Assembly (NCBI GenBank): GCA_038131935.1
Contig: JAYPQH010000032.1
Coordinates: forward strand, 160,001-224,000
DNA length: 64,000 nt
From: Alphaproteobacteria bacterium
Lineage (GTDB): Bacteria > Pseudomonadota > Alphaproteobacteria > UBA8317
Direction: 5' to 3'
The notes beneath the pieces were generated by a model. It was not told where the DNA came from and did not search any database. It worked only from the letters and a program-made list of their open reading frames with translations. Within the stretch, counting starts at the first letter, position 1; each line of letters starts with the position of its first letter. The translations under genes were made by a program, and so were the position numbers. Positions 7,560 to 49,555 of this stretch are shown one piece after another.

Positions 7560-8099
7560 ATGAAACGATTGGTGATCGCGCTTCTTACCCTCATGCCATT
7601 TTTTTCAATAGCCCAACCCATTCAAAACACAACGGGAAAAGTTCTTTTTATTCGACACGCATTAGCGCCAGGGACTGGTGACCCAGCTAATTTTCGTATC
7701 GATAACTGTGCCACCCAAAGAAACCTCGACGATAGGGGCCGTGAGCAAGCTAGAGCTATTGGACGCCTCTTAAAAGAGCAAATCTTACAATTTCAAACAC
7801 CAATCTATTCCTCACAATGGTGTCGTTGTTTAGAAACCGCCAAATTAATGGATATGGGCGCTGTTGAGGCATTTCCCGGTTTGAATTCATTTTATACTCT
7901 ACCTGAATTCGAAGAAGAATATCTTAGAGAGTTAAAAAGGAAGCTGGCCCAACTTCCCTCTGATGGCGCTCTTGTGATTATGGTCACTCATCAAGTGACC
8001 ATCAGTGCCATCACCAACAAATATGTCAGATCAGGCGACGGTGTTTTGTACAATCCCAAAACACAAATTGCAGAGAGCTTTGCACTACCAAGCTATTAG
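7560..8099 (+). CDS. Exported histidine phosphatase family protein
   Basis: Signal peptide, IRHALAPG, CATQRNLD, SSQWCRCLETA, VTHQV. Confidence 0.85.
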   Translation: MKRLVIALLTLMPFFSIAQPIQNTTGKVLFIRHALAPGTGDPANFRIDNCATQRNLDDRGREQARAIGRLLKEQILQFQTPIYSSQWCRCLETAKLMDMGAVEAFPGLNSFYTLPEFEEEYLRELKRKLAQLPSDGALVIMVTHQVTISAITNKYVRSGDGVLYNPKTQIAESFALPSY

Positions 8100-17468: not shown

Positions 17469-17483
17469 TTTCGCAGAGCAAAA
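17469..17483. promoter_or_regulatory. Candidate IclR-family operator
   Basis: TTTCGCAGAGCAAAA imperfect palindrome in a divergent intergenic region; similar 15-mer at 20040. Confidence 0.45.
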
Positions 17484-17522
17484 CCAATCTGCCAAGTGGT
17501 GAAATAAAAGAGAGAGAAAAAA

Positions 17523-19947: not shown

Positions 19948-20009
19948 GGGCGGTGTCTCCTTTTGGTGGTAAATGCCAGAAAAATACTGGGCGCGACAAA
20001 AAACAGTAA

Positions 20010-20062
20010 TTGACGCCAAGCATGATACGCGAGATGCTGTTTCGCAAGCTGAAATTCAGCTT
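20010..20062 (+). promoter_or_regulatory. Candidate sigma70 promoter with overlapping operator for the TAXI operon
   Basis: TTGACG-N17-GATGCT (20010-20038), then TTTCGCAAGCTGAAA (20040-20054) and inverted repeat AAGCTGAA-A-TTCAGCTT (20046-20062). Confidence 0.5.
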
Positions 20063-20115: not shown

Positions 20116-21288
20116 ATGATAAAAACTTTTTCTGCTTTGGTAACGGGTTCAATGCTGTTAGCCACCACGGCTTTTGCTGGTGGTCATGGCGTAGATCTAC
20201 CAAAACAACTTGCTTGGACGGCATATGGCACAGGATCAGCAGGATACAACCAATCCGTTGCTATTGGCGCAGCACTAAAAGATGCAGCTGGTGTAAGCCT
20301 TAGGGTATTACCTGGTAAGAATGATATCGCCCGCACAGAGCCTTTGAGACAGGGTAAAGTGCAATTCTCAGCGACCGGTGTGGGTGGGTCGTTCATGGCT
20401 CAAGAAGGCGTCTTTCAGTTTGGCGCAAAAAATTGGGGCCCACAGAATGTTCGGGTATTGATGGCAAACAACGGGAGGACAGTAGGTCTGTCTACGTGGA
20501 TTGCTGCCGACATCTGTGAAAAAGTTGGAAAAGCTGGCTGTGATGGATTCGAATATTCTGACTTGAAGGGCATGCGTGTAGCATGGGTTAAAGGTGCACC
20601 AGCCCTCAATGTAAATAACGAAGCCTATCTTGCATATGGTGGTTTGACCTGGAATGACGTCCAAAAAGTTGAGTTTGGTGGATTTGGAGCCAGCTGGAAA
20701 GGACTCATCAATGGCGACGTGGATGCTGTTTTTGCATCAACGAATTCTGGCCGCGTGTATGAAGCTGAAACAGGTCCTCGTGGTGTTTTCCTGCCACCTA
20801 TCGATGCCAACAATAAAGAAGGACTGGCAAGAATGGCTGCCATCGCACCTTTCTTCTCGCCTATGATGGCCAAGGTTGGCGCAACTATTGACGGAAAGCA
20901 GCCACGTCCGACCGCTGGCTATGCCTATCCGGTGCTTACCGCAATGGAAGGTCAAGACGAAAACCTTGTCTACAACATGACCAAGGCCATGGTAACCTTG
21001 TTCGATAAATATGACGGCAAAGCCCCTGGGATCTCAGGCTGGGCACAAGAAAAACAAAACTACAAGTGGGTTGTTCCTTATCACAAGGGCGCCGTAAAGT
21101 TTTGGAAAGAAATGGGCGTTTGGAATGATGAGCATGATGCACATAATAACAAACTTATTGACCGCCAAAAAACACTCCAAAAAGCTTGGTCAGATCTAGC
21201 AGCAACCAATCCAAGCGATTGGGAAGCAGCGTGGCAGAAAACACGCCGCGACGCACTTCAATCTGGTGGCTTTGAGGTTGTTTTCTGA
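20116..21288 (+). CDS. TAXI-family TRAP transporter solute-binding subunit
   Basis: Signal peptide, WTAYGTGSAGY, VVPYHKGAVKF; followed by a fused TRAP permease. Confidence 0.85.
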   Translation: MIKTFSALVTGSMLLATTAFAGGHGVDLPKQLAWTAYGTGSAGYNQSVAIGAALKDAAGVSLRVLPGKNDIARTEPLRQGKVQFSATGVGGSFMAQEGVFQFGAKNWGPQNVRVLMANNGRTVGLSTWIAADICEKVGKAGCDGFEYSDLKGMRVAWVKGAPALNVNNEAYLAYGGLTWNDVQKVEFGGFGASWKGLINGDVDAVFASTNSGRVYEAETGPRGVFLPPIDANNKEGLARMAAIAPFFSPMMAKVGATIDGKQPRPTAGYAYPVLTAMEGQDENLVYNMTKAMVTLFDKYDGKAPGISGWAQEKQNYKWVVPYHKGAVKFWKEMGVWNDEHDAHNNKLIDRQKTLQKAWSDLAATNPSDWEAAWQKTRRDALQSGGFEVVF

Positions 21289-21315
21289 TTTCCTTAACTT
21301 TTTGTTTTTTACAAA

Positions 21316-21342
21316 ACCCCATCTCTTTTTGAGAGATGGGGT
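21316..21342 (+). terminator. Intercistronic hairpin after TAXI solute-binding gene
   Basis: ACCCCATCTCT-TTTTG-AGAGATGGGGT perfect 11-bp stem. Confidence 0.65.
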
Positions 21343-21365
21343 CTCACTGCTTCACGAGGTTTGTG

Positions 21366-23323
21366 ATGGACGCTCAATCTAACACCGAAAACAAGCAACA
21401 ACAGGCCCACTCTGGGATATCACAGCTTTTCATTATTATGTTGACCATTTCCGGCGTGTTATTGGCTGTTCATCAATTATTTAACCTACAAATGTTTAAT
21501 ATTGTCCTCATCGAAGGACGTTATCTATATCTTTTAGGGGCGATATTTTTATCCCTTACTTTTGTTTGCTTTCGTATCAACGGGGAAAAGACAGCTCCGG
21601 TTCCTTGGTATGACTGGACATTGGCAGCCATGGCAATTGCGGTCATGGGATATTTTGCAATCACGGCGGAAATAAGCCTTGATAGTGGGTGGGAATATGC
21701 AGCGCCTTTTAATGCTGTCGTGGCTTCAGTCTTAGGTTACTTCCTGATCCTAGAGGGCACACGTCGGGCTGGTGGTAATACAATTTTTTGCTTTGTACTT
21801 CTCTTCTCACTTTACCCCACTTTTGCTGATATGATGCCTGGCCCTATTGAAGGATTCCCTCTCCATTTTTGGACGTTGTTCCTTACCATCTTATCTCTTC
21901 TGAAAGTTCATTCGGCATCCCTATGCGTGCTTTTGGAAATCTTGTCATTGGCTTCATTCTCTTTGGAGCTTTGCTGCAAAAAACAGGAGGGGGCGCATTT
22001 TTCAATGACCTAGCACTCTCTTTAGTTGGTCGCTTCCGCGGTGGTGCTGCTAAGGTTGCAATTTTTGCCTCTGGTCTTATGGGATCAATGTCTGGCTCCG
22101 TCATCTCGAACGTTCTCACAACTGGAGCATTTTCTATACCAGCCATGCAGCGCACAGGTTTTACAAAGAGATTTGCAGCAGCAACAGAAGCTTGTGCCTC
22201 CACCGGTGGCGTTCTGATGCCACCTATCATGGGCGCCACGGCATTTATCATGGCATCATTTCTTGCGCGTCCCTATTACGAAATCGCACTTGCAGCTGCA
22301 TTGCCTTCTATTCTGTATTATTTTGGACTTTTTGTTCAAATCGATGCTTATGCTGCAAAACATGGACTCAAAGGTTTGCCAGCTGAAGATGTCCCCAAAA
22401 TGGGAAGGGTGTTGAAAGAAGGCTGGCTTTATCTAACTGTATTCGGGGTTTTAATATTCCTCATGATGGTCATGCGACAAGAGGCTCTTGCACCATTTTA
22501 TGCAGTTGTTTTGCTTCTTGTTATCAACCAAGTCATCAAAAAATATAGATTTACCCGAAAAAGCTTTGCACAACTTGTTGTCTCTGTTGGTGAGGGACTC
22601 TCAGAACTTACGGCCATTTTGCTTGGCGTTGGCCTTATTGTTGGAGCATTTTCAGTAACCGGCCTAGCAGGAACATTGGTGAATGACATTGTGTTTATCG
22701 CGGGTGACTCTGTCATGGCGTTATTGTTTATGGGTGCTTTAACAGCATTTATTTTTGGCATGGGTATGACGGTTACCGCTTGTTACATTTTTCTTGCAAT
22801 TGTTCTCGCACCAGCACTCGAGCTAGCAGGTCTGAACACGTTGGCTGTGCACTTGTTCATTCTTTATTGGGGCATGGTGAGTTACATCACCCCACCGGTT
22901 GCATTGGGCGCATTCGCAGCCGCAACCCTTGCGGGAGCCAAGCCATTGGCTACTGGTTTTGAAGCTATGCGTCTAGGAGGGACCATTTATATTGTTCCAT
23001 TTTTCTTTGTGTTAAACCCCGCTCTTGTAGCTGAAGCACCAGCTTTGGAAGTTCTGTTTGTTTTTGTAACGGCTGTTATTGGGGTCGCACTTTTAAGTAT
23101 GGCACTACAGGGCCATACTGGGATTTTTGGTGCATTAGGTAAAGGTGTTGTTTCCATCATCAATCGCACCACCTTGTTCATTGCTGGACTCTTTTTTGCA
23201 ATGCCGGCCAGTGAATTTATTGGTTTAGGCCATTGGGAACTCTCTGGAATTGGACTTGTTCTTTCAGCACCAGTCTTATTTCTATCTCTGAAACGGCGTA
23301 ACGCAATGTTGGCTCAAGAATGA
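21366..23323 (+). CDS. TRAP transporter fused 4TM/12TM permease (split near 21865)
   Basis: GGAAKVA, SGSVISNV, EACASTGG.LMPPIMGA, ITPPVALGAF. Confidence 0.88.
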
Positions 23324-24101
23324 ATGAAGCTGAAAGGATGGAAAAAGACCGTAAATTTGTGTACGCGCTGGCTCGTGGGCTTGATATTTTAAAGGCCTTT
23401 AGCCCCGATGAAGCTGAATTGAGTAATCTTGAGCTTTCAGAAAAGACAGGGTTACCAAAACCCACAGTATCACGTTTCACCTACACACTCACTGAGCTTG
23501 GTTATCTTGTTACAGCACCAAGAACTGGAAAGTTCAGGTTGGGCCCTCTGGTTCTATCATTAGGCTACACAATGCTCGCCTCGGTCGACTTGAGAGAGCG
23601 CGCGAAGCCATTTATGGATGACATTGCGCGTCGTGATCATGTTACTGTTGCCTTGGGAACACGAGATAAACTTAGCGCTGTATATATCGAGGTTTCCAAA
23701 GGTAGCCAAATCATCACAATTAGCAGAAATGTTGGCTCTAGGCTTCCCATACATAATACCGCGATGGGAAAGCCCTTATTGCTGCATTACCTGCAACAGA
23801 GTATCAATATCTCTTGAAAGCCCTCGCAGAAAAATTTCCAGAAGATATAAGAGCAATAGAAAAATCTTTGGAAATGGCTCGCGAAGACATTGAAAAATAC
23901 GGATTTTGCACATCCATTGGAGAATGGATTAAAGATGTGAATGCTGTAGCTTCACCACTATTTTCAGCAGACCGCAACGAGATTTACGCCATCAATGTAG
24001 GAGGACCTTCATTCATGATAAATCAAGAGCGACTATGCGAAGAATTGGGACCAAGATTGGTAGATGTTGTAAAAGCCCTCACGCCAAGCGCATTGACATA
24101 G
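23320..24101 (+). CDS. IclR family transcriptional regulator (split near 23770)
   Basis: ALARGLDIL, TGLPKPTVSRFTYTL HTH, GSRLPIHNTAMGK, GEW...VNAVA. Confidence 0.9.
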
Positions 24102-24119
24102 TCATAACAGTCAAAATTT

Positions 24120-24139
24120 GTGAGGGGCCTCCCCCTCAC
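24120..24139. terminator. Hairpin between convergent iclR and ggt-like genes
   Basis: GTGAGGGG-CCTC-CCCCTCAC 8-bp stem. Confidence 0.6.
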
Positions 24140-24147
24140 TATTAGAT

Positions 24148-25749
24148 TTAACCCAAAACCAAGGCCATGCCATCTTTGCGCGGATCAGACCCAGCCACAT
24201 AGCCGCCTCCAGGTAAGGTTTGGATAAGCTGAGCTCCACCGAATCCAAGCCCCTCTGACCATGGAATTATTTTGATATCATGACCTGCATCACGCAAAGA
24301 TTGAACGAGGCTTTGCGGGAATGCCTCCTCAACTTCTACCTGATTTCCCTCCATAAATCTCCATCGAGGCGCATCAATTGCTGTCTGAACATCCTGCCCA
24401 AGGATTTGTGTTCGCACCAACATTTGCAGATGTCCTTGTGCTTGCATAAAAGCACCCATCACACCTGTGGCCATTCTGAGTCCGTTTGCTCCTGTAATAA
24501 ACCCCGGAATAATCGTATGGAACGGCCTTTTCATGGGGGCAACTTCGTTTGGATGTCCTTTTTCCATGGTAAAATTCGCACCGCGATTTTGGAAATGTAT
24601 CCCCGTTCCAGGAACAGATACACCCGATCCCATTCCCATATAATTTGATTGAATAAAAGACACCATCATACCATCTTCGTCAGCAGCACAGAGATACACA
24701 GTACCACCGCCACCAGGCTTACCAGCCCCAAACACTTGAGCACGATTTGGATCAATCAAAGCTGCGCGTTCTGCTCCATACGAAGGATCAAGAAGCCGCG
24801 CTGGGTCGAACGCCATGTAATCAGGGTCTGCTACATGTGCAAGCAAATCAGAGAATGCTAACTTCATGGCCTCTATTTGAAGATGCGTTCCGCGCCAATC
24901 TTCACCGTCCCATTTGTCAAACGAGGTATGCTTTAGAATGTTTAGCGCGATGAGCGCAGCAATACCCTGTCCATTGGGCGGTATTTCATAAAGTGTGGTC
25001 TCACCAAAATCCATCTGCAATAGATCAACCCAATCTGCCTGATGCGCCTCTAGATCCGCAGCCGTCATACTCCCACCGGTTTCTTTCGCAAACGCAATGA
25101 TTTTGGCAGCCAATTCACCTGTGTAGAAATCCTCTCCTTGCGTCTTTGCGATGGCCCTGAAGCTGTCTGCCATACCGCGGTTTATAAAACGCTGTCCCAC
25201 ATTTGGTACATGTCCGTTGTCTGTGAACATTTCAATGAAACCTGGTTGATCACGGAGGATTTCATGATCACGAGACCATAGTTTTTGCACAACAGGTGTC
25301 ACAATGAACCCCCGCTCCGCTTGCGAAATAGCATCTTCAAACAATGACTCAAACGGTAGCTTTCCAAATTTTTGCCACAATGCTGACCATCCACGTACAA
25401 CACCTGGTACTGTGACCGCGTCCCAACCTCGCTTTGGAATACCACCTTTGGCATCAAAAAACTCCCTTGTCCACGCGGCGGGTGCTCGGCCAGAGGAATT
25501 CAAACCATGGACCTTCTCACCATCATGTACAATCGCAAAAGCATCCGAACCAAGACCACAGCCCGTAGGCTCAACCAGTGTTAACATAGCGGCCGTGGCT
25601 ATGGCCGCGTCAGCTGCAGACCCACCCTTTTCAAGGATACGCAATCCTGCCTGCGTTGCGAGGTATTGTGACGTTGCCACCGCTGCACGCCCAAATACGG
25701 GCGTTCGCCTTGTCATGGTCACTGGGTAATAAGGGTAGTTTATACTCAT
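24148..25749 (-). CDS. Cytoplasmic gamma-glutamyltransferase family Ntn hydrolase
   Basis: VEPTGCGLGSD, PPNGQG, GGTVYL autoproteolysis Thr, KRPFHTIIP, SDPRKDG; no signal peptide. Confidence 0.88.
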   Translation of the reverse strand: MSINYPYYPVTMTRRTPVFGRAAVATSQYLATQAGLRILEKGGSAADAAIATAAMLTLVEPTGCGLGSDAFAIVHDGEKVHGLNSSGRAPAAWTREFFDAKGGIPKRGWDAVTVPGVVRGWSALWQKFGKLPFESLFEDAISQAERGFIVTPVVQKLWSRDHEILRDQPGFIEMFTDNGHVPNVGQRFINRGMADSFRAIAKTQGEDFYTGELAAKIIAFAKETGGSMTAADLEAHQADWVDLLQMDFGETTLYEIPPNGQGIAALIALNILKHTSFDKWDGEDWRGTHLQIEAMKLAFSDLLAHVADPDYMAFDPARLLDPSYGAERAALIDPNRAQVFGAGKPGGGGTVYLCAADEDGMMVSFIQSNYMGMGSGVSVPGTGIHFQNRGANFTMEKGHPNEVAPMKRPFHTIIPGFITGANGLRMATGVMGAFMQAQGHLQMLVRTQILGQDVQTAIDAPRWRFMEGNQVEVEEAFPQSLVQSLRDAGHDIKIIPWSEGLGFGGAQLIQTLPGGGYVAGSDPRKDGMALVLG

Positions 25750-26458
25750 GTTCCGTGGCTCTCTCTTGTTGTTCGAATTTCAATATGCTTCACCATATTG
25801 GGTATTTCTACCAATCGGTCCACATAAATTCCTGGTAAATGAATATGGTCAGGATCAAGACTTCCAGCAGGAACAATTTTTTCGACCTCAGCAATACATA
25901 CACGACCACATGACGCAACATCTGGGTTAAAATTCCTTGATGTCTTTCGAAAAATAAGGTTCCCCGCGGTATCTGCAATTGATGCCCGAATAACAGAAAC
26001 ATCAACAGTTATCGCCTCTTCCAAAATATATTCACGGCCATCAAAAACTCTTGTTTCCTTACCTTCAGCGACCTTGGTACCTACCCCTGTGGGGGTATAA
26101 AATGCGGGAATTCCTGCACCGCCAGCACGCATTTTTTCAGCTAATGTTCCTTGTGGGGTAAAATCACAAGCAATCTCGCCCGCAAAATACTGCCGTACGA
26201 ACTCAGGATGATTACCGGGATAAGAGGCAATTGCTTTTTGATATGGCCTGCTTCAAGAATTAACCCTAAAGCTTTTCCAACAGCACCGGCATTGTTCGCC
26301 ACAACCGTAATATCTTTGGTGCCCTTCTCATGTATCGCAACGAGCAGATATTCTGGTGTGCCAACCAGACCAAATCCACCAACAGCCATACTCATTCCAT
26401 CAAAAACAACATCCTCTATCGCTGATGCCGGACTTTCATAAATTTTTGCCAAAACCAT
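25746..26458 (-). CDS. 3-oxoacid CoA-transferase subunit A (split near 26238)
   Basis: VGGFGLVGTPE, NNAG, PQGTLAE, RAGGAGIPAFYTPTG, HLPGIYVDR. Confidence 0.88.
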
Positions 26459-26500
26459 CTCCTTGTAATGATCAAAAATCGTAACTTCAAATGGATTACT

Positions 26501-27304
26501 TTAACTTCCAACCCGCAGAGGATTTGTCAAACCACGCAAGCAGGCAATAAGACTTAACGAAGTAATCTTGCCAGTCCCTGGGTTTTCTTCTGTAGGTATA
26601 TTTTCAATACTCATTTGCAACTTGGCAGAATCTGAATCAACAACGATATGGTGGGTGTTGCGCGTCAGAGCAGGATCAGCCCAAATCTCTAGCTTTGTGA
26701 GATCCGGCCCAATACCAGCCAATCCTAATGCTGCAGCCACATTCACGTTCGCTGGAAACGCCGCGGCTCCTTCTCGTGCGGTCCCTTTGAAAACGCACGT
26801 CGCCTCCTCCAGCATATCAACATCTATCCCTATTTCACGAAGGTAAGGGGCTTTGCGTAGAGACATTGGTGGCTTACGGGTAATCATCGTTACCTCATAA
26901 ATCTTTCCTTCTGCCGCCGCACGAACAGCATCAAAACCAAGCAACGCGCCGGTTGCCAGAATAATTTGCCCCGCTGATTCATGAGCCATGGCAACTATTT
27001 CAGGGTGTGCAAGAATACCAGCTCCACTCACAGTCACCAATTTCTTGCCATTCTCTAGGGTAGGAATTGCGATGGAGGGGAATGCAGCAGTGGGTGCACA
27101 ATCTACCACAACATCCGCATGATCAGCTATCTGGTTGTTATCAACGCATGGAACATCGAGACCATGCTTTAACAAAAACTCTTGTGCTTTCTCCTTCTGA
27201 CCTGAGCTCACAGCAACAAGTTCAAAGTCCTTGAGATGACCCTCGACAAAAGAAGACACAACTTTACGACCAATTGTACCAATACCTGCAATAGCGATTT
27301 TCAT
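26501..27304 (-). CDS. nadX: L-aspartate dehydrogenase family protein
   Basis: GIGTIG, TGALLGFD, TRKPP, FPANVNVAA, NTH, ENPGTG. Confidence 0.85.
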   Translation of the reverse strand: MKIAIAGIGTIGRKVVSSFVEGHLKDFELVAVSSGQKEKAQEFLLKHGLDVPCVDNNQIADHADVVVDCAPTAAFPSIAIPTLENGKKLVTVSGAGILAHPEIVAMAHESAGQIILATGALLGFDAVRAAAEGKIYEVTMITRKPPMSLRKAPYLREIGIDVDMLEEATCVFKGTAREGAAAFPANVNVAAALGLAGIGPDLTKLEIWADPALTRNTHHIVVDSDSAKLQMSIENIPTEENPGTGKITSLSLIACLRGLTNPLRVGS

Positions 27305-27495
27305 CCAAATACACTCCTCGTGACAACGCTTCCTGATCCACGGTCAAAATCGCGCTGACAGACAATAAAAGTAGGGCGGGTCGATGTGATCTGTTGACAT
27401 CATGCTTCGCATCATGAACGCTTCTTGCAGGCTTGACAACCAATTGCTTAAGTCTTTCGACTAATATAACGCGAAATCGAAGTTTGGGGAATCAA

Positions 27496-28475
27496 ATGAT
27501 GAAGAAACGAAATATTTTAGGTCTTGCTGCAGCTTTGTCTATGGGTGTGGCTGGTATATCCTACGCTGGGGGCCATAGTGCGGACATTCCATGTTCCACA
27601 GCGAAGTTAATCGTGCCTTGGGGTGCAGGTGGCGGAACGGATGTAATTTTCCGTCAAATTGTCGATGTTGCGAATAATCAAGGGATGAAACCGCAACTTC
27701 AGGTGGTTAATGTTGGAGGGCAAGGTGGTAACAAGGGTGCCAAGCAAGCCGTCGCAGCAAAACCTGATGGTTGCACCTTGTTCGCGATGCACCAAAGCGC
27801 CATCACAAGTTACCTAACAGGACGTGTGAATTTCACTTGGGATGGGTTTGAACCTATTGCATTGATGACAAATACTCCATCAATCTTTGGGGCTGCAGGA
27901 AATACATCATACAGCAATCTCAATGAGTTGATTGCAGAGATCAAGAAAAACCCAGGAACAGTAACTGCTGGTGCAACCTTGGGCTCTACGTCGCAAGTTG
28001 TTTTTCTTCTTACAGAGGACGCTACAGGCGGAAAATTCAAGTATGTGTCGTACGACGGAACCAAACAACGTATGACTGCTCTTCTGGCAGGCAACATTCA
28101 AGTTGGGGAAATCAATCTTGCAGCTGCAAAGAAATATATTGAAACAGGTAAACTCAAAGCGTTGGGCGTCATGTCAAACAAGCGTTTATCTGGGCTAGAC
28201 GATATCCCAACGGCTAAGGAGCAAGGGCTTGATGTTGTTTTTGGTGTGGAACGCGGTATCGTTGCGCCCAAGGGAACATCTGAGGCAATCGTTAAGCATT
28301 ATGCTGCAGCATTTCAAAAAGCCGCTTCTGACGAAAAGTTAATTGCAAGCATGCTCTCAAAGGGACATTCCTCGAATATGTAGGACCCTCAGAATATACT
28401 GCAAAGTTGGATGAAACCACCAAAAAGTGGACCACCATTTTCGATGGCATGGGTTTGCTAAAGGTGAAAAACTAA
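27496..28475 (+). CDS. tctC: Tripartite tricarboxylate transporter substrate-binding protein, TctC/Bug (split near 28365)
   Basis: IVPWGAGGGTD, PDGCTL, IPTAKEQG, APKGT; restoring one A extends the frame to TAA at 28475. Confidence 0.87.
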
Positions 28476-28528
28476 ACAAGACTATAAAAAATTACCTTGG
28501 AACAGAGGTGACATAAATTTTATGATAG

Positions 28529-28556
28529 ATCAGGGGCTTTTTAGCCCCTGATTTTT
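28529..28556 (+). terminator. Terminator-like hairpin after tctC
   Basis: ATCAGGGGCT-TTTT-AGCCCCTGAT followed by a T run. Confidence 0.7.
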
Positions 28557-28593
28557 CAGTTCTCTTTTTAACTTGACGTGGGATGCGTGATCC

Positions 28594-29097
28594 ATGAATC
28601 GTGATTTTTGGACAAGTTTGTTTTTGATATTTTTATCATTCGTACTGTATCGGGAAAGTACGTTCATTGAAGATGTTGATTATGGGAGTATGAAAGCTGA
28701 TGTCTGGCCAACCTTCTTGGTCATGCTGCTGGTTGTTTTATCAATATCTATGCTTGTGAAATCCCTAATGGAATACCGACAGGCAACGCAAAGCTCCACT
28801 CAAGACAATGAGAATGCTGAACAAACAGATTCCGTCACTGGTTGGACTTGGTTGATCAACCCAATGATAGTTTTTGTTCTATTCTTTCTATTCCTCATCA
28901 CCTTAGATTACCTTGGCATGCTCATCGGAGGTATCTTTTTTACGTTCATTACGATGACATTATTGGGGCAAATATCATGGCGGACTGTACCTATCTATTT
29001 TGTAATTTCAGTGATTAGCATCTCAGGGATGTGGGCAATTTTCACCTTTGGCTTACGCGTTATGTTGCCAGAGGGCGTACTTTTCACTGTTTGGTGA
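28594..29097 (+). CDS. tctB: Tripartite tricarboxylate transporter small permease
   Basis: Small multi-TM protein ending LRVMLPEG, between tctC and tctA. Confidence 0.82.
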   Translation: MNRDFWTSLFLIFLSFVLYRESTFIEDVDYGSMKADVWPTFLVMLLVVLSISMLVKSLMEYRQATQSSTQDNENAEQTDSVTGWTWLINPMIVFVLFFLFLITLDYLGMLIGGIFFTFITMTLLGQISWRTVPIYFVISVISISGMWAIFTFGLRVMLPEGVLFTVW

Positions 29098-29103
29098 GGA
29101 ATA

Positions 29104-30753
29104 ATGATGACTGATGCAATTATCTTGGCTGCACAAAGTATTTTTCTTGATCCCGTCACGTTAGGGCTGATTGCTTTAGGGACTTTTAGCGGACTGATAG
29201 CAGGATCGATTCCCGGTTTTACGATCGCAATGGGTGTTATCCTCGTACTTCCATTTACCTTTGGGCTAAGCCCAATCCAAGGCGTTGCCACCATGATTGG
29301 CGTTTTCGTAGGAGGGCTTTCCGGAGGTTTGTTGTCCGGCATGCTGATTGGAATTCCTGGCACACCTTCTTCAGTTGCCACGACGTTTGATGGTTTTCCA
29401 ATGGTCCGTTCAGGACGAGCAGGTTTTGCTCTTGCCTTGGGCCTATGGTCATCTTTTTTCGGAGGAATCATCTCTGCTATTTTGTTGGTGACCCTAGCCC
29501 CTCAGCTTGCTTTTCTTGGTTTGGAATTTGGGCCTTGGGACTATTTTATGCTCATCGTCTTCGCCCTCACTATTGCTGTAAGTTTATCAAGTCAAAATAT
29601 GCTCAAAGGCCTCACAGCAGGAATCTTGGGATTGATCGCCGCAACAGTTGGAGAAGATGAAATCAATGGTGTTGCACGGTTTTCTTTTGACACCGAGGCA
29701 CTCAGGCAAGGATTTGCTTTTTTACCGGTGCTGATTGGCCTGTTTGCCTTCTCTCAATTGCTGTCTGATGTAGAGGATAGAACCAAGGCAAAATCATCCA
29801 TGATGAATGCTGAAGGGGAATCTGTACGTATCGAGCATCTCCGCGCTATTCGAGAAATATTTTCTCGTTGGATTAATCTTGTTAGGTCTAGCCTGATAGG
29901 CGTGTTTGTTGGAATTCTACCAGCGGCTGGAGGTTCTATTTCCAATATTTTGGCCTATGATCAGGCACAGAAAGCATCAAAAGTCCCTGAACAATTTGGA
30001 AAAGGCGTATCAGACGGCGTTATAGCACCTGAAGCCGCCAACAATGCCACCGCGGGTGGGGCACTTATGATGATGATGGCCCTAGGTATCCCAGGTGATA
30101 TCGTGACCGCGGTCATGATCGGCGCTTTGATGATACATGACATTGTCCCGGGTCCAACCTTTATTCAAGACAAGCCTGTGTTGGCTTATGGTGTTTTTAT
30201 AGCTTTTTTCTTTGCTAACTTTGTTATGGTCTTCATGATGTCTGGGGCATTGCGTGTATTTTTGAAGGTAGCGAGGGTTCGGCTAAATATTCTTGTTGCT
30301 GTCATATTGGCTTATTGTGCCTTTGGTGTTTTTGCCTTGCACAATATTGGCTTTGACCTCTGGGTGCTCTTTGGGTTCGGCATCGTTGGTTATATCATGA
30401 AAAAGCTTGGTTTCCCTCTAGCCCCGATGATTTTGGGTGTTGTGTTGGGGAAACTCGCTGAGATCAATCTCTCAAGAGCCTTGGCGATTTCTGATGATAT
30501 CATGCTATTTGTTTCTCGCCCTTGGTCATTATTTTTCTTCCTGCTTGCCATCGTGTCGGTTATTTTTCCATTTTTCCAGCAAGCACGTGACGAAAGCCTT
30601 TTGAAACGATTTTTTGTACCCTTGAGCTTGGTTGTTCTTGCTTTACCATTATTCGTAATGGACTCTTATACACGTATGATTGTTGGTATCTTGATGATTG
30701 TTTTTGCCGCATGGCAGCTTCGCAAGAAATCTTTCGTCCCTCAAAATGGTTAA
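29104..30753 (+). CDS. tctA: Tripartite tricarboxylate transporter large permease
   Basis: IPGTPSSVATTFDGFPM, PEAANNA, LGIPGD, APMILGVVLG. Confidence 0.92.
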   Translation: MMTDAIILAAQSIFLDPVTLGLIALGTFSGLIAGSIPGFTIAMGVILVLPFTFGLSPIQGVATMIGVFVGGLSGGLLSGMLIGIPGTPSSVATTFDGFPMVRSGRAGFALALGLWSSFFGGIISAILLVTLAPQLAFLGLEFGPWDYFMLIVFALTIAVSLSSQNMLKGLTAGILGLIAATVGEDEINGVARFSFDTEALRQGFAFLPVLIGLFAFSQLLSDVEDRTKAKSSMMNAEGESVRIEHLRAIREIFSRWINLVRSSLIGVFVGILPAAGGSISNILAYDQAQKASKVPEQFGKGVSDGVIAPEAANNATAGGALMMMMALGIPGDIVTAVMIGALMIHDIVPGPTFIQDKPVLAYGVFIAFFFANFVMVFMMSGALRVFLKVARVRLNILVAVILAYCAFGVFALHNIGFDLWVLFGFGIVGYIMKKLGFPLAPMILGVVLGKLAEINLSRALAISDDIMLFVSRPWSLFFFLLAIVSVIFPFFQQARDESLLKRFFVPLSLVVLALPLFVMDSYTRMIVGILMIVFAAWQLRKKSFVPQNG

Positions 30754-30833
30754 GGATCAAACACCCTAAGCAAATGTCATGACGCCCTTTTTGCAAAAAA
30801 TGGTTCCTTAAATGAACGATAATGAGACATATT

Positions 30834-33286
30834 ATGAACAAAAACCTTGACTTTTTGGGTGCTGGTGACCCTGGAGCGCTGGATTTTCTGCTTCAACATC
30901 TCAATGGCAATACATCTCAAAAAGATTGGGATATATGGTTCGCACAATTCAGCTGGCTATATGCGGATATCAATCCACTCAAAAACCTAAACCGTTGCCA
31001 GAATTTGTTTCATCTGATCCCGATGCGAAGGGACATATAGAGCATTTTTGTGGTACAATTGGATGGGAAGTAGGCCATATTTTAAATGAAGAGAAACGCC
31101 ATTGGCTGCTTGACGCTGCCAAAACACAAAAGCAGTCATCTGTATTTACTGTAGCCGAAGCATTTGAACTTTTGTGTAAAGCAGAAGCATTTGAGGCGAT
31201 TACGAAAAAAAGGTTACCAACCATCAAGACCTTCTCTATGGAAGGAGGCGAAGGATTTCTCGTTGCCGTTGAATCGGTGATTAAGCATGCCCAAGAAATC
31301 AATATTGTTCTTGGGGGTATGCATCGCGGCAGAATGACCCAAAATGCATTATTATTTGGGGCCAGCCCAGAAGATATGATTGGCCAAATTCAAGGCAAAC
31401 CAGACCTGCCTTTTGACCTTGGAGCCTCCTCAGATGTGCCTTATCATTTGGGGGTTGCTGGCAAGCGCTCCGATGACAAGGTTATTTGGCTTTCCCCCCA
31501 CCCTTCGCATTTGTCCGTTGTTGCACCTGTTGCTATGGGTTATGCGCGCGGCCAAGAAGAACAATGCTTAAGCATTATGTTGCATACAGATGCTGCGTTT
31601 GCAGGCCAAGGAGTTAACATGGAGTTGCTCCAATTATCAGGCCTAGACGGTTATCACGTTGGTGGAAGTATCCATTTGATTTTAAATAATCAAATTGGCT
31701 TTACAACATTAGAAGAACAAGCTCGAACAGCAAGAAATAGCAGTGACATAGCTCGTATGCTCGACATACCTATATTACATGTTCATGGGGATGATATTGT
31801 AAGTCTCATAAAAGCCGGTTTTATTGCGGTAGAATACAGACGACAATTTGCCACGGATGTTGTCATTGAAGTACTGTGCACAAGGCGGCGCGGTCATAAC
31901 GAGATTGATGACCCAAGCTATACAGCGCCTATTATGCAACAGCAAATTGATGCACGCCCTCCCATCACAACCATCACCCAGCGAAAATATCAACTGACAC
32001 AACCCGACATTTCTGATTTTAACCAGCGGATTAATGATGCATTCAATTTGGATAATCTTTCAACAGATAACCAAATTCCAGATGCCCCTGGCCTGGTAAA
32101 TGATGTTGAAGCGGTATTATGCAAACCAGTTAAAACTGGCATCATGTTAGACAAACTCATTCAAATTGGGGAACAACTAACGACTTGGCCTCATGAATTC
32201 ACCATTCACCCACGGGTGGCTCAATTGCTCACCAAACGAGCTGAAGCGTTGCGTTCACATGGCAAAATAGATTGGGGGTTTGCCGAAACATTGGCTTTGG
32301 GTGGTTTGCTTGATGAAGGCTATTCCGTAAGGCTTTCCGGCCAAGATACTGTACGTGGTGCCTTTTCCCAGCGTCATTTGCATATCTATGATCAGAATGT
32401 CGGAACCTCTTTCGAACCTTTGTCCCAGCTTGGTGACGCAGAAATATTTAATTCACCTTTGATTGAGAATGCTGTGCTTGGGTTTGAATATGGTCTTAGT
32501 GTGTCGGCCCCTAACAAATTGGTCATTTGGGAGGCACAATTCGGTGATTTTCTGAATGTTTGCCAAGCCATGTTTGATCAATTTGTAACAGGCGGTGAAG
32601 ATCGTTGGTTGCAACAATCTCGGCTTGTTATGCTTCTTCCTTATGGTTTTGACGGAGGTGGCCCAGACCATTCAACCGGGCATATTGAAAGGGTGTTATC
32701 AAGAGCAGCGCGAGGTAATGTTCGTGTTGCCAATCCAACCACACCAGCCAATTATTTTCACCTTCTTCGTCGTCAAATGCATGACCATCTGGCCAAACCA
32801 TTGGTTGTTTTTTCCCCTAAGCTTCTCCTAAGACATCCTCTGTGCCTCTCAGATGTTGATCACTTCACCAAAGGTCATTTTGAAACTTTCAAGACTTGGA
32901 ATATTGAAAATGCACAACAGATTGCATTTTGTCATGGTAAAATGGCCGTTCGCATGCTTGAGGAGTGCAACAAGCGTGATTGTCATGATTGGGGTATCGT
33001 TTCACTCGAACAACTTTATCCCTTGGACAGAAATAATTTATTGAAATTAAAAGAGCTTCTTTCAACTAAGAAATTATTCTTTGTTGAAGAAGAACCCGCC
33101 AACCTAGGGGCTTTTACATATCTCGATAGAAAGTTGGAATCTATATTCCAACAAACCTTTCATCGTATTGGTCGGCCCGAAGCTGCATCACCCGCTGTTG
33201 GGTGGAAAAGTTGGCATGACAAAGAAGAAAACTTACTTTGGACACAAATATTTGGGAACAATAATCATGACAAAATTGCCAGATGA
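30834..33286 (+). CDS. Atypical, shortened 2-oxoglutarate dehydrogenase E1-like ThDP enzyme (split near 30985)
   Basis: FSMEG, HRGR, PSHL, DAAFAGQG, NNQIGFTT, GHNE, RLSGQD, WEAQFGDF, YFHLLRRQ; ~820 aa. Confidence 0.85.
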
Positions 33287-33920
33287 GATCATTGAACGGC
33301 TGAAGAAGCTTGCCACCCCAACCATTGCGAACGCAATTGATGAAATTGGCCAAGGCGGTATCATGAAAGGTATTCACGCTGTAGGCGCAGGTTTTAAATG
33401 TGCGGGACGCGCCGTAACCGTTCGTCAAGTGACAGGGCCATTAGGAAGTTTCAAAGTTGAGGACTTTCGGGTTGGTCATATGATCGATGCAGCAGGTCCT
33501 GGTGATATTATTGTGGTCGCCAATGGTGGTGCGGAGGTGTCCACATTTGGGGGCATGGCAGCCTATGCTGCAAAACATCGCGGTATTGAGGGACTGGTTG
33601 TCGATGGGGGTGTAAGAGACCGTGAAGAAATTATCGAGTTTGGTTTTGATGTTTTTTCTGTCCATGTCACCCCTACTCCTGGAAAAACGCGTTTGAAAGT
33701 TGAGCAAATCAATGAAACGATTGTAGCTTGTGGGGTAACGGTTAATCCAGGTGACGCAATACTCGCTGATGGTAGTGGTGTTGCGGTTCTACCTCGAGAT
33801 CATGCTGAGCACATCATCACCTTAGCGGAAGGGTATGCACGCGATGATGAAAAGGCTTTGGAAGAATTGGCAAATGGCCTAAGCTTTACTGAGGCCTTAA
33901 AGAAATTTGCCAAAATTTAA
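33267..33920 (+). CDS. RraA-like / HMG aldolase-oxaloacetate decarboxylase family protein
   Basis: GRAVTV, FGGMAA, GLVVDGGVRD, VNPGDAILADGSGV. Confidence 0.87.
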   Translation: MTKLPDEIIERLKKLATPTIANAIDEIGQGGIMKGIHAVGAGFKCAGRAVTVRQVTGPLGSFKVEDFRVGHMIDAAGPGDIIVVANGGAEVSTFGGMAAYAAKHRGIEGLVVDGGVRDREEIIEFGFDVFSVHVTPTPGKTRLKVEQINETIVACGVTVNPGDAILADGSGVAVLPRDHAEHIITLAEGYARDDEKALEELANGLSFTEALKKFAKI

Positions 33921-34024
33921 GGTGCTTCATGAGTTCAAGGTTCACATGTCATAGACTTTGGTCTATGTGATGGAGCTGTTTATTGGGATAACCCCCAATG
34001 AATCATCTAAAAAGGGAGAGTATA

Positions 34025-35068
34025 ATGATCAGAACAGTTACCAAAGCCCTCGTTATTGTTGGGGTGGCAAGTTCACTCAGCATGGGCACGGCTTTGGCTG
34101 GCGGCCATGGCGCCACAGTCGAAGGACCAAAAGTTTTTTGGAAACTTTCAACATGGGGAAACCCACGTGCATTTACCAAAGGTATTGAACACCTATCCGA
34201 GCAGTTGGCCAAAAAAACAGGCGGCAACTTTACCTTAAAGATTTTTTACGGTGGACAGCTGTCAAAGAACAAGGAAAACCTTGACGGTTTGAAGGCAAAT
34301 GCCTTCGAAATGGCAACATTTTGTAACTTTTATCACCCCGGCAAAAACCCGGCTTTGATGGTTATGACCATGCCATTTTTACCTGTGAAAGATTTTGATT
34401 CAGCTGCACGTGTGCGCCGTGGACTTTATGAGCATCCCATCGTCAAAGAAGAAATGGCGAAATGGAATGCGATGTATTACGAGTCAAGTCATCTTCCACA
34501 ATATGAATTTGTTGGTAAAGGTGATGCCCCTATGACACTTGAGGGTTTCAAGGGTATGCGCGTTCGTGCCGGTGGTGGCGTTGGTGTCGCCATGGAAGTT
34601 TTGGGCGCGACACGCCAGTCCATGCCAGCACCTGAAGTCTATACCGCAATGCAGCGTGGTACCGTTGACGCCGCATCATTCCCCTTCTCTTATGCTCATG
34701 GTGCATACAAAACTTTTGAAATTGGCGACTGGTTCACGTCTAATCTGTCTCCTGGCACCTCAGATTGCCCCATCGTTGTAAACAAAACAGCTTTTGATAA
34801 TCTTCCAAAACAGTATCAAGACCTCATGATGGGTATGCGTGATGAAGTGATGGAAGTTTATCGTAACGCATACAAAGCAGCGGATGAAAAATATCTGCCA
34901 ATGTTCCGTGCTAAATTAAAAGAAATCACCTACTCAGATGCAGAGCTTGCTCGTTTCCAGGAACTGGGTGGTCGTCCTGTTTGGGACAAGTGGGTTGCAG
35001 ACAACAAGGATAAGTTTGATGCTCAAGCGATCCTTGACCTAACACTCAAACTTGCTAAGGGCGAATAA
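34025..35068 (+). CDS. dctP: TRAP transporter solute-binding subunit
   Basis: Signal peptide, KGMRVR, PEVYTAMQRGTVDA, NKTAFDNLP; AGGGAG RBS. Confidence 0.88.
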   Translation: MIRTVTKALVIVGVASSLSMGTALAGGHGATVEGPKVFWKLSTWGNPRAFTKGIEHLSEQLAKKTGGNFTLKIFYGGQLSKNKENLDGLKANAFEMATFCNFYHPGKNPALMVMTMPFLPVKDFDSAARVRRGLYEHPIVKEEMAKWNAMYYESSHLPQYEFVGKGDAPMTLEGFKGMRVRAGGGVGVAMEVLGATRQSMPAPEVYTAMQRGTVDAASFPFSYAHGAYKTFEIGDWFTSNLSPGTSDCPIVVNKTAFDNLPKQYQDLMMGMRDEVMEVYRNAYKAADEKYLPMFRAKLKEITYSDAELARFQELGGRPVWDKWVADNKDKFDAQAILDLTLKLAKGE

Positions 35069-35203: not shown

Positions 35204-35830
35204 ATGGCCGGCACATCAGAGCATACGGAAGTGAACACTCCGGTTGGTTTTTTCCCTACCATTCTAGCGAAACTAGAAGATATGCTTAATATAGTTGCAG
35301 CCGTGACAATCTTTGCGGTCATGCTACTCACCACCGCCGGTATAGTTTCACGTATTCTTGGCGCCCCCATCCCAGCTTATTTGGAGATCTCCGAACTAGC
35401 GATCGCCATTTTTGCTTTTCTTGGTGTAGCCTATGCACAAAGACTAGGTACGCATATTCGGCTCGATATGATCGTGAAAAATGCACCAGGTTCACTCCGC
35501 TGGTTCATTGAATTGCTTGGAAGTGTTGTCAGCTTGTTGCTGGTCTTGGTCTTGATACGTTATTCTTGGGACTTTTTCTTAAACGCCTATCATATAGGTG
35601 ACAGTACATATGACTATGAGATCCCGACTTGGCCAGCGAAGCTTTTGGTACCCTTCGCATTCAGCGTTTGGGCCTTGCGCATCTTGGTAGAAATTTTTGG
35701 TTATTTTGAGCTCATCATTTCTCCAAACAATCGTCCTAGAAACGTTCCCCTCACATTGTCACCTGAGGAAGAAGCCCGACTAGAGATTGAACAATCTTCC
35801 ACATCAACCGATGGTTCTCGTAACCAATAG
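35204..35830 (+). CDS. dctQ: TRAP transporter small permease
   Basis: Four TM helices, HIRLDM motif. Confidence 0.87.
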   Translation: MAGTSEHTEVNTPVGFFPTILAKLEDMLNIVAAVTIFAVMLLTTAGIVSRILGAPIPAYLEISELAIAIFAFLGVAYAQRLGTHIRLDMIVKNAPGSLRWFIELLGSVVSLLLVLVLIRYSWDFFLNAYHIGDSTYDYEIPTWPAKLLVPFAFSVWALRILVEIFGYFELIISPNNRPRNVPLTLSPEEEARLEIEQSSTSTDGSRNQ

Positions 35831-35863
35831 GCGTCACACCAACCACCCATTAGAAGGATCACC

Positions 35864-37276
35864 ATGTTGGATATCAGTGCATTGATCGCAGGCCAACCAG
35901 AGGCCATTTTTGGTATTGGATATGCAGACACCGCGACGGTGGGGATGTACTGTATGATCTTACTCCTCATCCTCGTCGCAATGGGCGTGCGCGTTGTATT
36001 CGCAGCAGGAATTACAGGTCTCGTTGGCTTGGTAGAATTGATTGGCTGGAGTGGAGCTGCAGCGACCGTTGGCTCGATTCCCTACTCCAAATCGGTATCG
36101 TTTGTATTGGGGCTCTTGCCCATGTTCATTCTCATTGGATACCTCGCGTTTCACGCTGGTATGACGCGGCAACTTTTCCATGCCTCTAAAGTATGGTTGG
36201 GTTGGGTGCCAGGAGGTATGGCCGTCGCAACTGTCTTTGCTGCTGCTGGTTTTGCAGCTGTTTCTGGTGCATCAGTCGCCACGGCAGCCGTTTTTGCGCG
36301 CGTGGCCATCCCAGAGATGTTGGAAGCAGGATACAAAAAGACTTTAGCAGCGGGTGTTGTCGCAGCAGGCGGCACTCTTGCAACCCTTATTCCCCCATCT
36401 GCTATTTTGGTCATCTATGCCATCATTGTTGAGGAGTCCGTGGGGGCCCTCCTGATCGCAGGTTTTTTACCCGGTGTCTTCTCCGCCATTATTTATGGAC
36501 TAATTATTATCATCTGGGCCAAATTAAACCCAGATGCAGGTCCTGCTATAACAGGCTTTACCTGGGGAGATCGAATACGTGCTTTACCGGGCTTACTTCC
36601 CATTATGGCGGTTGCTATCATCATTATCACGGCTGTTTATGATGGTTGGGCAACACCAACAGAAGCAGGCGCCTTAGGTGCATTTATTGTACTTATCACA
36701 GCCTTTTTGAATGGCATGAGGTGGCCTGCATTAAAAGCAGCTCTGATGGAAACATCTAAGCTCGTTGTTATGATTTTTTGTTTGATTTGGGGCGTTCTGA
36801 TATTTGGTCGTTTCTTAGGATTTTCAGCTGTGCCAGAGGCCTTTGCCAATTGGATTCTATCGTTAGACCATGATCCTTACGTCATCTTATTTGCGATACT
36901 TATGGGATATGTGATCTTGGGAATGTTCATGGATGCCATTGGCCTACTTTTGCTCACACTGCCTGTTGTTTACCCTGCTGTTATGGCCCTCAATGGCGGT
37001 GAGTATGTTACCGCGGAAGACAGTGCATTTGGCATGACAGGCGCCCAAGCAAGTATCTGGTTCGGGATAATTGTTGTTAAAATGGCGGAAGTTTGTTTGA
37101 TCACCCCCCCCATTGGACTCAATTGTTTTGTGGTGAACGGTGTGAGGCCAGACATACCTCTTACCGATGTATTTAAAGGCATTGCTTTGTTTTTCGTGGC
37201 TGATGTGTTAACAATTATTGGGCTGATATTCTTTCCAGCTATTATCACATACTTACCGGATCAAATGTTTAACTAG
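35864..37276 (+). CDS. dctM: TRAP transporter large permease
   Basis: SGASVA, GGTLATLIPPS, TPTEAG, LITPPIGLN. Confidence 0.92.
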   Translation: MLDISALIAGQPEAIFGIGYADTATVGMYCMILLLILVAMGVRVVFAAGITGLVGLVELIGWSGAAATVGSIPYSKSVSFVLGLLPMFILIGYLAFHAGMTRQLFHASKVWLGWVPGGMAVATVFAAAGFAAVSGASVATAAVFARVAIPEMLEAGYKKTLAAGVVAAGGTLATLIPPSAILVIYAIIVEESVGALLIAGFLPGVFSAIIYGLIIIIWAKLNPDAGPAITGFTWGDRIRALPGLLPIMAVAIIIITAVYDGWATPTEAGALGAFIVLITAFLNGMRWPALKAALMETSKLVVMIFCLIWGVLIFGRFLGFSAVPEAFANWILSLDHDPYVILFAILMGYVILGMFMDAIGLLLLTLPVVYPAVMALNGGEYVTAEDSAFGMTGAQASIWFGIIVVKMAEVCLITPPIGLNCFVVNGVRPDIPLTDVFKGIALFFVADVLTIIGLIFFPAIITYLPDQMFN

Positions 37277-48538: not shown

Positions 48539-49555
48539 TTACAGAGCAGCTTTGATTTTCTTTGCTGCGTCTTCACTCACCCAAGTTGTCCAGATGTCTT
48601 CATGCTTCACCAAAAACTCTATGGCTGCATCAGCACCATTCGCTTGATTGTCTGTCATGAAGACCAACATGCTGTTCATGACATCACCAGGATACGTCCT
48701 CTTTGCAAGGTAAGCCGCTGCGTCTCCGCCACGGTTTGCAAAATCCGTTGTAATGATCGAACGCACCTCTGATTTTGTCCAACTTGAAGGCTTTGGATTT
48801 GCACATTCTTGTTCTGGTTTAACAATACAACCATCCCAGTTTTCTGCGCCAGCCCACTTTGCTTCAAAAGGCAACATTTGAAGATTATACTTGCCCACAA
48901 CCGCAGTTGGGTTCCAATAATAACCAAACCAATATTCACCTCTGTTCGCCGCCTTAGCAATAGAACCATCAAGGCCCGCAGCTGAACCTGGGTCAACCAA
49001 AACCCATCCTTTGGCTTCCATATCGAACGCGCGATAGAGGTTAGCATTGGCAAGTTGGCAACCCCAACCAGCTGGGCATCCCATGAACGCGCCTTTGCTA
49101 TTGTCTTCAGCATAAGGGAACAGATCCGGACGCGCGAGTACTTTTTCCACTGTATCTAACTCAGGATGATCCTTACGGAATTTCGCGGTCACCCACCAAC
49201 CTTCGCCAAGACCTGTGATAGGTGCTCCATTAATTCCTTGTAAACGACCCTCATTGATCGCTTTCTCCAGAGGTCCTCGGTATGCATTAACCCACATCTC
49301 TGGTGCAACGTCTGGCTTTGCCTTTTCATTCATGGATGTGAATGTTGGCATCGTATCCCCAGGAATAACGCTTGCGTTACACCCATAACCTTCTTGAAGA
49401 ATAAATTGATCAACATTGGCCATCAGCTGTGCTGAGGCCCAGTTCATTTCCGCAATTGTGATATCACCACAGTCTGCGCGCGCAATGTCAGCCGTAGATA
49501 GGCTCACGGTTACGGCAGCCGCGCACAAAATGGCGGTTCCGGTTACCCGTTTCAT
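48539..49555 (-). CDS. Quaternary amine (betaine-type) ABC transporter substrate-binding protein
   Basis: Signal peptide, MNWASA, GCPAGWGC, GYYWNPT; AAGGAG RBS before ATG 49555. Confidence 0.87.
   Translation of the reverse strand: MKRVTGTAILCAAAVTVSLSTADIARADCGDITIAEMNWASAQLMANVDQFILQEGYGCNASVIPGDTMPTFTSMNEKAKPDVAPEMWVNAYRGPLEKAINEGRLQGINGAPITGLGEGWWVTAKFRKDHPELDTVEKVLARPDLFPYAEDNSKGAFMGCPAGWGCQLANANLYRAFDMEAKGWVLVDPGSAAGLDGSIAKAANRGEYWFGYYWNPTAVVGKYNLQMLPFEAKWAGAENWDGCIVKPEQECANPKPSSWTKSEVRSIITTDFANRGGDAAAYLAKRTYPGDVMNSMLVFMTDNQANGADAAIEFLVKHEDIWTTWVSEDAAKKIKAAL

Follow-up and report, generated by a model that had tools for sequence, protein, structure and literature searches.

Three unrelated solute-binding proteins encoded in the window, a stretch of 64,000 nucleotides from a contig of an uncultured marine alphaproteobacterium, carry Gly-Gly-His (GGH) directly after the best signal peptidase I-type box of their precursors. 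They are a TAXI-family protein and a DctP-family protein of tripartite ATP-independent periplasmic (TRAP) transport systems and a TctC (Bug-family) protein of a tripartite tricarboxylate transport (TTT) system. The tripeptide is an insertion relative to most orthologues, its histidine is invariant among close relatives, and tripeptides of the form X-X-His have originated repeatedly and independently in the same phase relative to the box. If the precursors are cut at the predicted position, each mature protein would begin NH2-Gly-Gly-His, the simplest model of the arrangement that binds Cu(II) and Ni(II) at the amino terminus (ATCUN). Our preferred reading of this pattern, which we hold at somewhat short of an even chance, is that the GGH tips are ATCUN-type Cu(II)/Ni(II) sites unmasked by signal peptidase on flexible tails and serving as a periplasmic metal buffer or scavenger. 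The three genes, the relevant parts of their products, and two secreted proteins that serve as internal controls are as follows.

20116..21288, + strand: TAXI-family TRAP solute-binding protein, 390 amino acids (ORF and translation; Pfam NMT1_3, E=2e-14)
20116..20178, + strand: TAXI predicted signal peptide, ending AFA, last base 20178 (−3/−1 box)
20179..20187, + strand: TAXI GGH codons GGT GGT CAT, predicted mature residues 1 to 3, then G-VDLPKQ
27496..28383, + strand: TctC (Bug-family) solute-binding protein (Pfam TctC, E=3.4e-34)
27496..27567, + strand: TctC predicted signal peptide, ending SYA (−3/−1 box)
27568..27576, + strand: TctC GGH codons GGG GGC CAT, predicted mature residues 1 to 3, then S-ADIPC
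34025..35068, + strand: DctP-family TRAP solute-binding protein, 347 amino acids (Pfam DctP, E=1.2e-32)
34025..34099, + strand: DctP predicted signal peptide, ending ALA (−3/−1 box)
34100..34108, + strand: DctP GGH codons GGC GGC CAT, predicted mature residues 1 to 3, then G-ATVEGP
7560..8099, + strand: histidine phosphatase family protein with signal peptide, SIA↓QPIQ, untagged internal control
48539..49555, − strand: ABC-type OpuAC betaine-type binding protein with signal peptide, no His near the junction, internal control

The GGH codons were confirmed at the positions that a sequence-only reading of this DNA had given, and the boxes that precede them, AFA↓, SYA↓, and ALA↓ (the arrow marks predicted cleavage), are the best −3/−1 boxes of the three precursors. 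Cleavage sites were assigned with a crude heuristic of our own that uses the −3/−1 rule only. By that heuristic all three precursors look like Sec substrates, with Lys or Arg among the first residues, a hydrophobic stretch of 11 to 13 residues, and then A/S-x-A. Two start codons were settled in favor of the shorter product: DctP begins at 34025 rather than 33998, with a GGGAGAG Shine-Dalgarno sequence upstream and a 100%-identical database protein that uses the same ATG, and TctC begins at 27496 rather than 27433, as indicated by a Shine-Dalgarno sequence and by database proteins. According to a study of signal peptidase sites, the commonest box by far has Ala at −1 and −3; most alphaproteobacteria contain 11 to 15% Ala and group with species shown by proteomics to keep A-x-A, and the divergent Pelagibacter and Ehrlichia contain about 5% (PMC3509430). 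The proteins of the window contain 10.9% Ala, close to the former range and unlike the latter figure, so the A-x-A rule should apply here.

Each carrier belongs to a separate Pfam family and scores above the curated cutoff of that family (54.4 bits against 27 for NMT1_3/TAXI, 119.1 against 27 for TctC, and 113.8 against 23.4 for DctP), which bears out the assignment of the three proteins to different families. Inspection of the signal-peptide junctions likewise confirmed that the histidine phosphatase (SIA↓QPI) and the OpuAC protein are without GGH. Three other kinds of leader were considered for TAXI, TctC, and DctP and rejected: Cys, which a lipoprotein processed by signal peptidase II would have, is missing from the junction and its adjacent positions; the n-regions MIK, MMKKRN, and MIRTVTK hold no RR pair, as a Tat signal peptide would; and the leaders are classic hydrophobic Sec peptides rather than double-glycine bacteriocin leaders.

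The 59 open reading frame (ORF) products of the window (19,633 residues) contain GGH five times in total, against 3.6 expected from composition. Three of these five occurrences lie at predicted mature positions +1 to +3, in three of the five signal-peptide proteins, and the chance of three GGH falling at five such positions in 19,633 is of the order of 1e-10. The clusters formed by the three proteins at 90% identity contain 12, 19, and 14 members (14 for TctC) from several independent sources (NCBI, JGI, ENA, and Logan), and every cluster member with an N-terminus carries the motif. The several frame changes in the window do point to an imperfect assembly, but the chance figure and the presence of the motif in 12 to 19 sequences per protein from several independent sources effectively refute coincidence or an assembly artefact.

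The histidine stands out within these clusters. In strain-level sequences with an N-terminus, drawn from five 90% clusters, it occupies predicted position +3 in 71 of 71; in the same 71, position +1 varies between G and D (one case), +2 between G and S (four cases), and +4 between G and S. A similar picture emerges from more distant DctP proteins, those of the window, of the relative L001 (see below), and of the homologue P0002, which share 73 to 77% identity: their signal peptides have largely diverged, and A-L-A-G-[G/S]-H is kept. Identical and near-identical proteins bear the source name "MAG: Alphaproteobacteria bacterium" (MAG, metagenome-assembled genome), and the next DctP cluster, at 73% identity, bears the name "SAR116 cluster bacterium."

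Comparison with 120 listed homologues per protein points to an addition at the junction; the counts hold among the matches listed. The TAXI homologues (n = 120) are 68 to 98% identical, 110 of them are without X-X-His, and most begin two residues before the conserved VDLP or its equivalent; the window protein reads A↓GGHG-VDLP, with a tail about 2 residues longer than in most orthologues. X-X-His is absent from 119 of the 120 TctC homologues, many of which have ADIPC or close variants no more than a few residues from the predicted end of the signal peptide, and the GGHS of the window (A↓GGHS-ADIPC) looks like an insertion of about 4 residues. For DctP, X-X-His is missing in 117 of 120; the majority start with A↓ANVDGP or something close to it, where the window protein reads A↓GGHG-ATVEGP. 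Judged from these alignments, GGH[G/S] is a lineage-specific insertion of 2 to 4 residues at the cleavage junction.

Recurrence of X-X-His was followed in the cluster representatives and in species-level loci, the latter obtained by a profile search of genome contigs with a TAXI profile, from which the best 80 of 603 stretches were taken; the species of the window is not among them. TAXI orthologues reading A↓X-X-His make up 10 of the 120 listed cluster representatives and 6 of the 80 species loci, with GG, DG, DD, and AG as the X-X pairs. Over all three proteins the variants GGH, GSH, DGH, DDH, and AGH stand in the same A↓X-X-His phase. Trees were built from the mature domains only. The TAXI tree calls for 8 changes in the trait, and strongly supported branches force no fewer than 4 of them; the DctP tree calls for 2, both forced (a SAR116-like clade and P0047, which has GSH); and TctC has a single origin. 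By these trees, A↓X-X-His arose independently at least 7 times over the three orthologue groups, also in other marine alphaproteobacterial lineages. Lineages of Paracoccaceae are among those whose TAXI proteins have GGH or DGH.

No homologue has His at predicted +2, though Asp, which a single base change would turn into His, is frequent at that position (45 of 117 TAXI proteins). The heuristic put His at +1 in four homologues; inspection by eye showed these to be misplaced calls, with the His inside the signal peptide. As a background we used 150 diverse TAXI-family representatives, 122 of them with a predicted signal peptide: among these 122, His was at +3 in none and anywhere in +1 to +10 in one. 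The G+C content of the six X-X-His TAXI loci was no different from that of the other 74 (Mann-Whitney P=0.84). Invariance of the histidine together with recurrence in one phase is the outcome expected of selection for NH2-X-X-His. As a separate observation, several orthologues (L037, L045, L080, P0306, P0328, and P0309) have His in the c-region of the signal peptide, as A-H-A↓ with His at −2, so histidine near the junction is not confined to the mature side.

The tail appears to be accessible. Homologues in the Protein Data Bank align only from mature residue 4 to 10 onward. An AlphaFold2 model of mature DctP (mean predicted local distance difference test score [pLDDT], 94.6; predicted template modeling score, 0.90) places the first strand from mature residue 12, with residues 1 to 11 as coil and a mean pLDDT of 75 over residues 1 to 10. 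On account of the coil residues, the lowered pLDDT, and the later start of the structural alignments, the tail is predicted to lie outside the folded core and should be free, and an ATCUN site is sterically plausible in the model.

The chemistry of such a terminus has been reviewed. At physiological pH the imidazole of the His, a pair of backbone amides, and the amine of the terminus together form ATCUN, a four-nitrogen square-planar site for Cu(II) and Ni(II); among designed tags, GGH and GGHG are the classic ones, and Cu(II) bound in the DAHK site is not readily reduced to Cu(I), as the review describes (PMC7701195). Given the predicted A↓ cleavage, His is at position 3 in all three window proteins, and position 2 is a residue other than Pro (G in these three; in relatives, G, S, or D). 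We propose the following route to a metal site. The TAXI-TRAP, TTT, and DctP-TRAP binding proteins have each gained a G-G-H-[G/S] extension of 2 to 4 residues exactly at the predicted signal peptidase I junction. A cut after the canonical A-x-A or S-x-A would then free an amino terminus that has His as its third residue, and this terminus, carried by a flexible tail that precedes the first beta-strand, could adopt the ATCUN arrangement. It would capture periplasmic Cu(II) tightly, and Ni(II) less tightly, in a form not easily reduced to Cu(I). The result would be a cheap metal buffer or scavenger that rides on binding proteins already present in quantity and serves protection or acquisition; SAR11 bacteria have been reported to lean heavily on solute-binding proteins (PMC11485210).

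The actual cleavage site, the binding of a metal, the identity of that metal, and any physiological benefit are what we infer from this pattern. A wider version of the proposal, that marine alphaproteobacteria repeatedly add minimal ATCUN tags to solute-binding proteins as a moonlighting periplasmic layer for Cu(II)/Ni(II) buffering or capture, is rather doubtful at present. Seawater holds a pool of strong copper-binding ligands, and we speculate that released tagged proteins might contribute to it, since binding proteins of this kind are highly abundant in bacteria of the sea.

Several observations weigh against an exposed metal site, and a first group concerns where the signal peptide is cut. 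Of the 10 TAXI homologues with X-X-His, our heuristic misplaced the cleavage site in 3, and before filtering it also called membrane proteins. Beside the best box directly before GGH, weaker alternative boxes follow GG and GGH[G/S], and TctC has a third candidate cleavage site, GVA↓. The main rival builds on the second of the weaker boxes: GGH[G/S] would be an insertion in the signal-peptide c-region, signal peptidase would cut at G-H-G↓ or G-H-S↓, and the His, at −2, would be lost with the leader, leaving no metal site. A cut after GGH[G/S] would leave ATVEGP in DctP and ADIPC in TctC, which are the predicted mature starts of the orthologues, and the same cut works for L001 (GHS↓), P0002 (SHS↓), and P0047 (SHA↓). 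Since all three window tags end in a small residue, G-H-[G/S]↓ is a legal though weak box, and the residue at +4 is small in all 4 origins outside the other TAXI lineages. Signal peptides also evolve fast through insertions and deletions, and the orthologues P0306, P0328, P0309, L037, and L045 provide A-H-A↓ boxes that carry His at −2. Nevertheless, we regard this explanation as unlikely. In every case the His is preceded, two residues upstream, by a canonical A↓ box, which is much the stronger one; DctP lineages that have diverged still share both A-L-A and the His, with variation at +2 and +4, and −2 is a position without known constraint. The rival fails outright for the TAXI variants GGHIS, DGHIT/IA/VT, DGHD, DDHIE/IT, and AGHIA, in which +4 is I, V, or D, and, copying aside, it offers no account of why A-G-G-H recurs three times. 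Were cleavage to remove the His all the same, the finding would reduce to a curiosity of signal-peptide evolution.

The other weak box leads to a different copper site. Histidine-brace proteins such as CopC and the lytic polysaccharide monooxygenases (LPMOs) have a site that is made by signal-peptide cleavage from the free amino terminus and a His side chain. Cleavage after A-G-G↓ would leave His as residue 1 and could in principle create a site of this kind, and in A-G-G↓, A-G-S↓, and A-D-G↓ positions −3 and −1 do hold the small residues that the rule asks for. With Gly or Ser at −1, however, the box is much weaker than with the Ala two residues upstream, and the DDH variants (P0133, L006, and L016) would place a forbidden Asp at −1. 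A brace also requires, besides His as residue 1, that the fold supply a further ligand, such as another His, and no such ligand is evident; unlike in CopC and the LPMOs, the His here is predicted at residue 3. We therefore consider a brace-like site very improbable.

A second group of observations grants the mature GGH start and questions its use as a Cu/Ni site in vivo. The tail could be a near-neutral copied linker, or it could have another role, such as processing efficiency, contact with Zn or another metal, or contact with a protein. The argument for copying comes from the DNA. The sequence-only reading had held that the motif is not a DNA repeat, which stands for any long repeat; at the TAXI and DctP junctions, however, the last signal-peptide codons and GGHG (20167-20191 and 34088-34112) match at 22 of 25 positions, and for 5 of the 7 identical residues both genes use the same one of the synonymous codons (P about 0.04, post hoc). 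Short-tract copying between the TAXI and DctP genes, rather than independent selection, may thus have spread the motif in this genome. The tag is moreover patchy among close relatives (the L001 DctP has it and the L001 TAXI protein does not) and absent from other secreted proteins; no metal-homeostasis genes were found in the window; and weaker Cu(II) binding is expected of the Asp-containing ATCUN variants, as the review indicates (PMC7701195). In one TAXI clade, finally, His stands in place of D or E with the tail length equal, a single base change from D, and that swap could be drift.

On the other side, 71 of 71 sequences keep the His, with variation at the neighboring positions, and the at least 7 independent origins always give X-X-His and never His at +2, despite equal mutational access. 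An exposed NH2-Gly-Gly-His, furthermore, binds Cu(II) as a matter of chemistry (PMC7701195). With these points in view, a tail that makes no Cu/Ni site in vivo seems to us improbable.

The reach of the tag was assessed with a relative and with neighboring genes. L001 is an alphaproteobacterial MAG, the closest among the 80 loci (78% TAXI identity), and is syntenic with the window over 8.5 to 35.8 kb. Its DctP begins ALA↓GGHSATVEGP, and its TAXI protein begins ALA↓ADAKLP and is untagged. Since L001 carries the tag on DctP but not on TAXI, the DctP tag predates the split of the window lineage from L001, and the TAXI and TctC tags are later gains in the window lineage. The block at about 26500 to 34000, which encodes an aspartate dehydrogenase, TctC/TctB/TctA, a 2-oxoglutarate-dehydrogenase-E1-like protein, and an RraA-like aldolase, is absent from L001, where a CoA-transferase gene directly precedes the DctP gene.

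For the neighbors, the heuristic was run over the 80 loci and the window and gave 230 raw calls, 112 after filters. His was at +3 in 5 of 67 non-TAXI predicted secreted proteins: three from one cytoplasmic-looking family (probable false positives), the L001 DctP, and one doubtful case. The secreted neighbors of the inspected X-X-His TAXI genes, few proteins judged with a crude heuristic, showed no further X-X-His. Even the window itself includes secreted proteins that go untagged, namely the phosphatase and the OpuAC protein; the tag is not general. The suggestion that the tag is a general one on abundant binding proteins was therefore not borne out beyond the lineage, given the untagged L001 TAXI protein and secreted neighbors. 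What survives of the earlier interpretation is a pattern that is real, nonrandom, and maintained, with His invariant at predicted +3 and recurrent in the same phase; its generality beyond the lineage does not.

Known ATCUN systems offer partial parallels. In the eukaryotic examples (serum albumin, with DAH; the histatins; hepcidin; the neuromedins; and protamine P2), NH2-X-X-His is likewise bared by removal of a leader, and the natural carriers that the review lists are all eukaryotic (PMC7701195). The carriers here differ in being bacterial periplasmic binding proteins for organic acids, in which the tag would be a recent, lineage-specific add-on and the metal site is predicted. The engineered GGHG-Hin recombinase and GGH-ecotin, the latter derived from an Escherichia coli periplasmic protein, carry the identical tri- or tetrapeptide on the N-terminus of a folded protein (PMC7701195). 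Those are laboratory constructs for cleavage and cross-linking chemistry, whereas the window proteins would be a natural counterpart.

Among bacterial proteins, periplasmic ZinT also has a His-rich N-terminal stretch that is flexible and has been proposed to be where metal is first captured (PMC9175090). By analogy it is the nearest bacterial case documented here, although ZinT is specialized as a zinc chaperone, has several His, and contains a further site within its fold, and the window proteins, each with a single His, come from nonmetal transport families. Residue 24 of ZinT, which we take to be its first mature residue, would also give H-X-H. The sequence-only reading was aware of no such system as the one proposed here, and our literature search, with subscription journals outside its scope, likewise found, as judged largely by titles and abstracts, no description of natural ATCUN tags on solute-binding proteins; one paper deals with internal His/Met motifs of PcoB (PMC12509749). 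We take GGH here to be a known metal-binding motif in an undescribed natural setting, an assignment for which the evolutionary pattern alone argues.

All three binding-protein genes adjoin cognate membrane-component genes downstream (DctM, TctB/TctA, and DctQ/DctM, respectively).

21336..23323, + strand: fused TRAP membrane component, TAXI partner (two ORFs, 21336-22013 and 21869-23323, with a frame change; the second matches Pfam DctM, E=8.3e-91)
28594..30753, + strand: TTT membrane components TctB (28594-29097; Pfam E=2.9e-14) and TctA (29104-30753; E=3e-137)
35204..37276, + strand: DctP membrane components DctQ (35204-35830; Pfam E=3.2e-22) and DctM (35864-37276; E=1e-65)

Frame changes are frequent in this region. 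The 3′ end of the TctC gene is lost at a frame change near 28360, in an AAAGGG run, after which reading resumes in another frame to about 28475; the window TctC has 295 amino acids, against 325 to 326 for 13 of the 14 sequences in the 90% cluster to which it belongs. Such changes interrupt or truncate at least six genes: those for a thiamine pyrophosphate enzyme (18297-20019, − strand), the fused TAXI permease (21336-23323, + strand), an IclR regulator (23320-24101, + strand), a CoA-transferase (25746-26458, − strand), TctC (about 28360, + strand), and a Glu_synthase-like protein (50488-52088, − strand). Since 13 of the 14 cluster sequences, which come from other assemblies, have an intact TctC and the fused TAXI permease stretch reads in one frame in L001, the frame changes look like assembly indels or strain-specific decay.

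The binding-protein genes are surrounded by an acyl-CoA and organic-acid catabolic island (1-20000 and 38000-45000) that includes several acyl-CoA dehydrogenases, enoyl-CoA hydratases, family III CoA-transferases, a thiolase, and an ADP-forming CoA ligase. Farther along, at 58244-63766 on the + strand, lie three large consecutive ORFs of 753, 393, and 714 amino acids, the last two with RTX calcium-binding nonapeptide repeats; the first (753 amino acids) had no Pfam match. The trio may represent one large secreted repeat protein, possibly frame-broken too.

If the ATCUN reading is correct, a motif so far associated with secreted proteins of animals and with designed tags would be a device of bacteria in nature as well, one that tiny insertions would have brought convergently to periplasmic proteins with no relation to one another. 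In practical terms, the binding proteins would themselves take up Cu or Ni in binding assays and in metal-affinity purification, and annotation pipelines could screen for His at mature position 3. For bacteria of the ocean, the tags would amount to a simple mechanism for buffering copper in the periplasm or for capturing trace metals.

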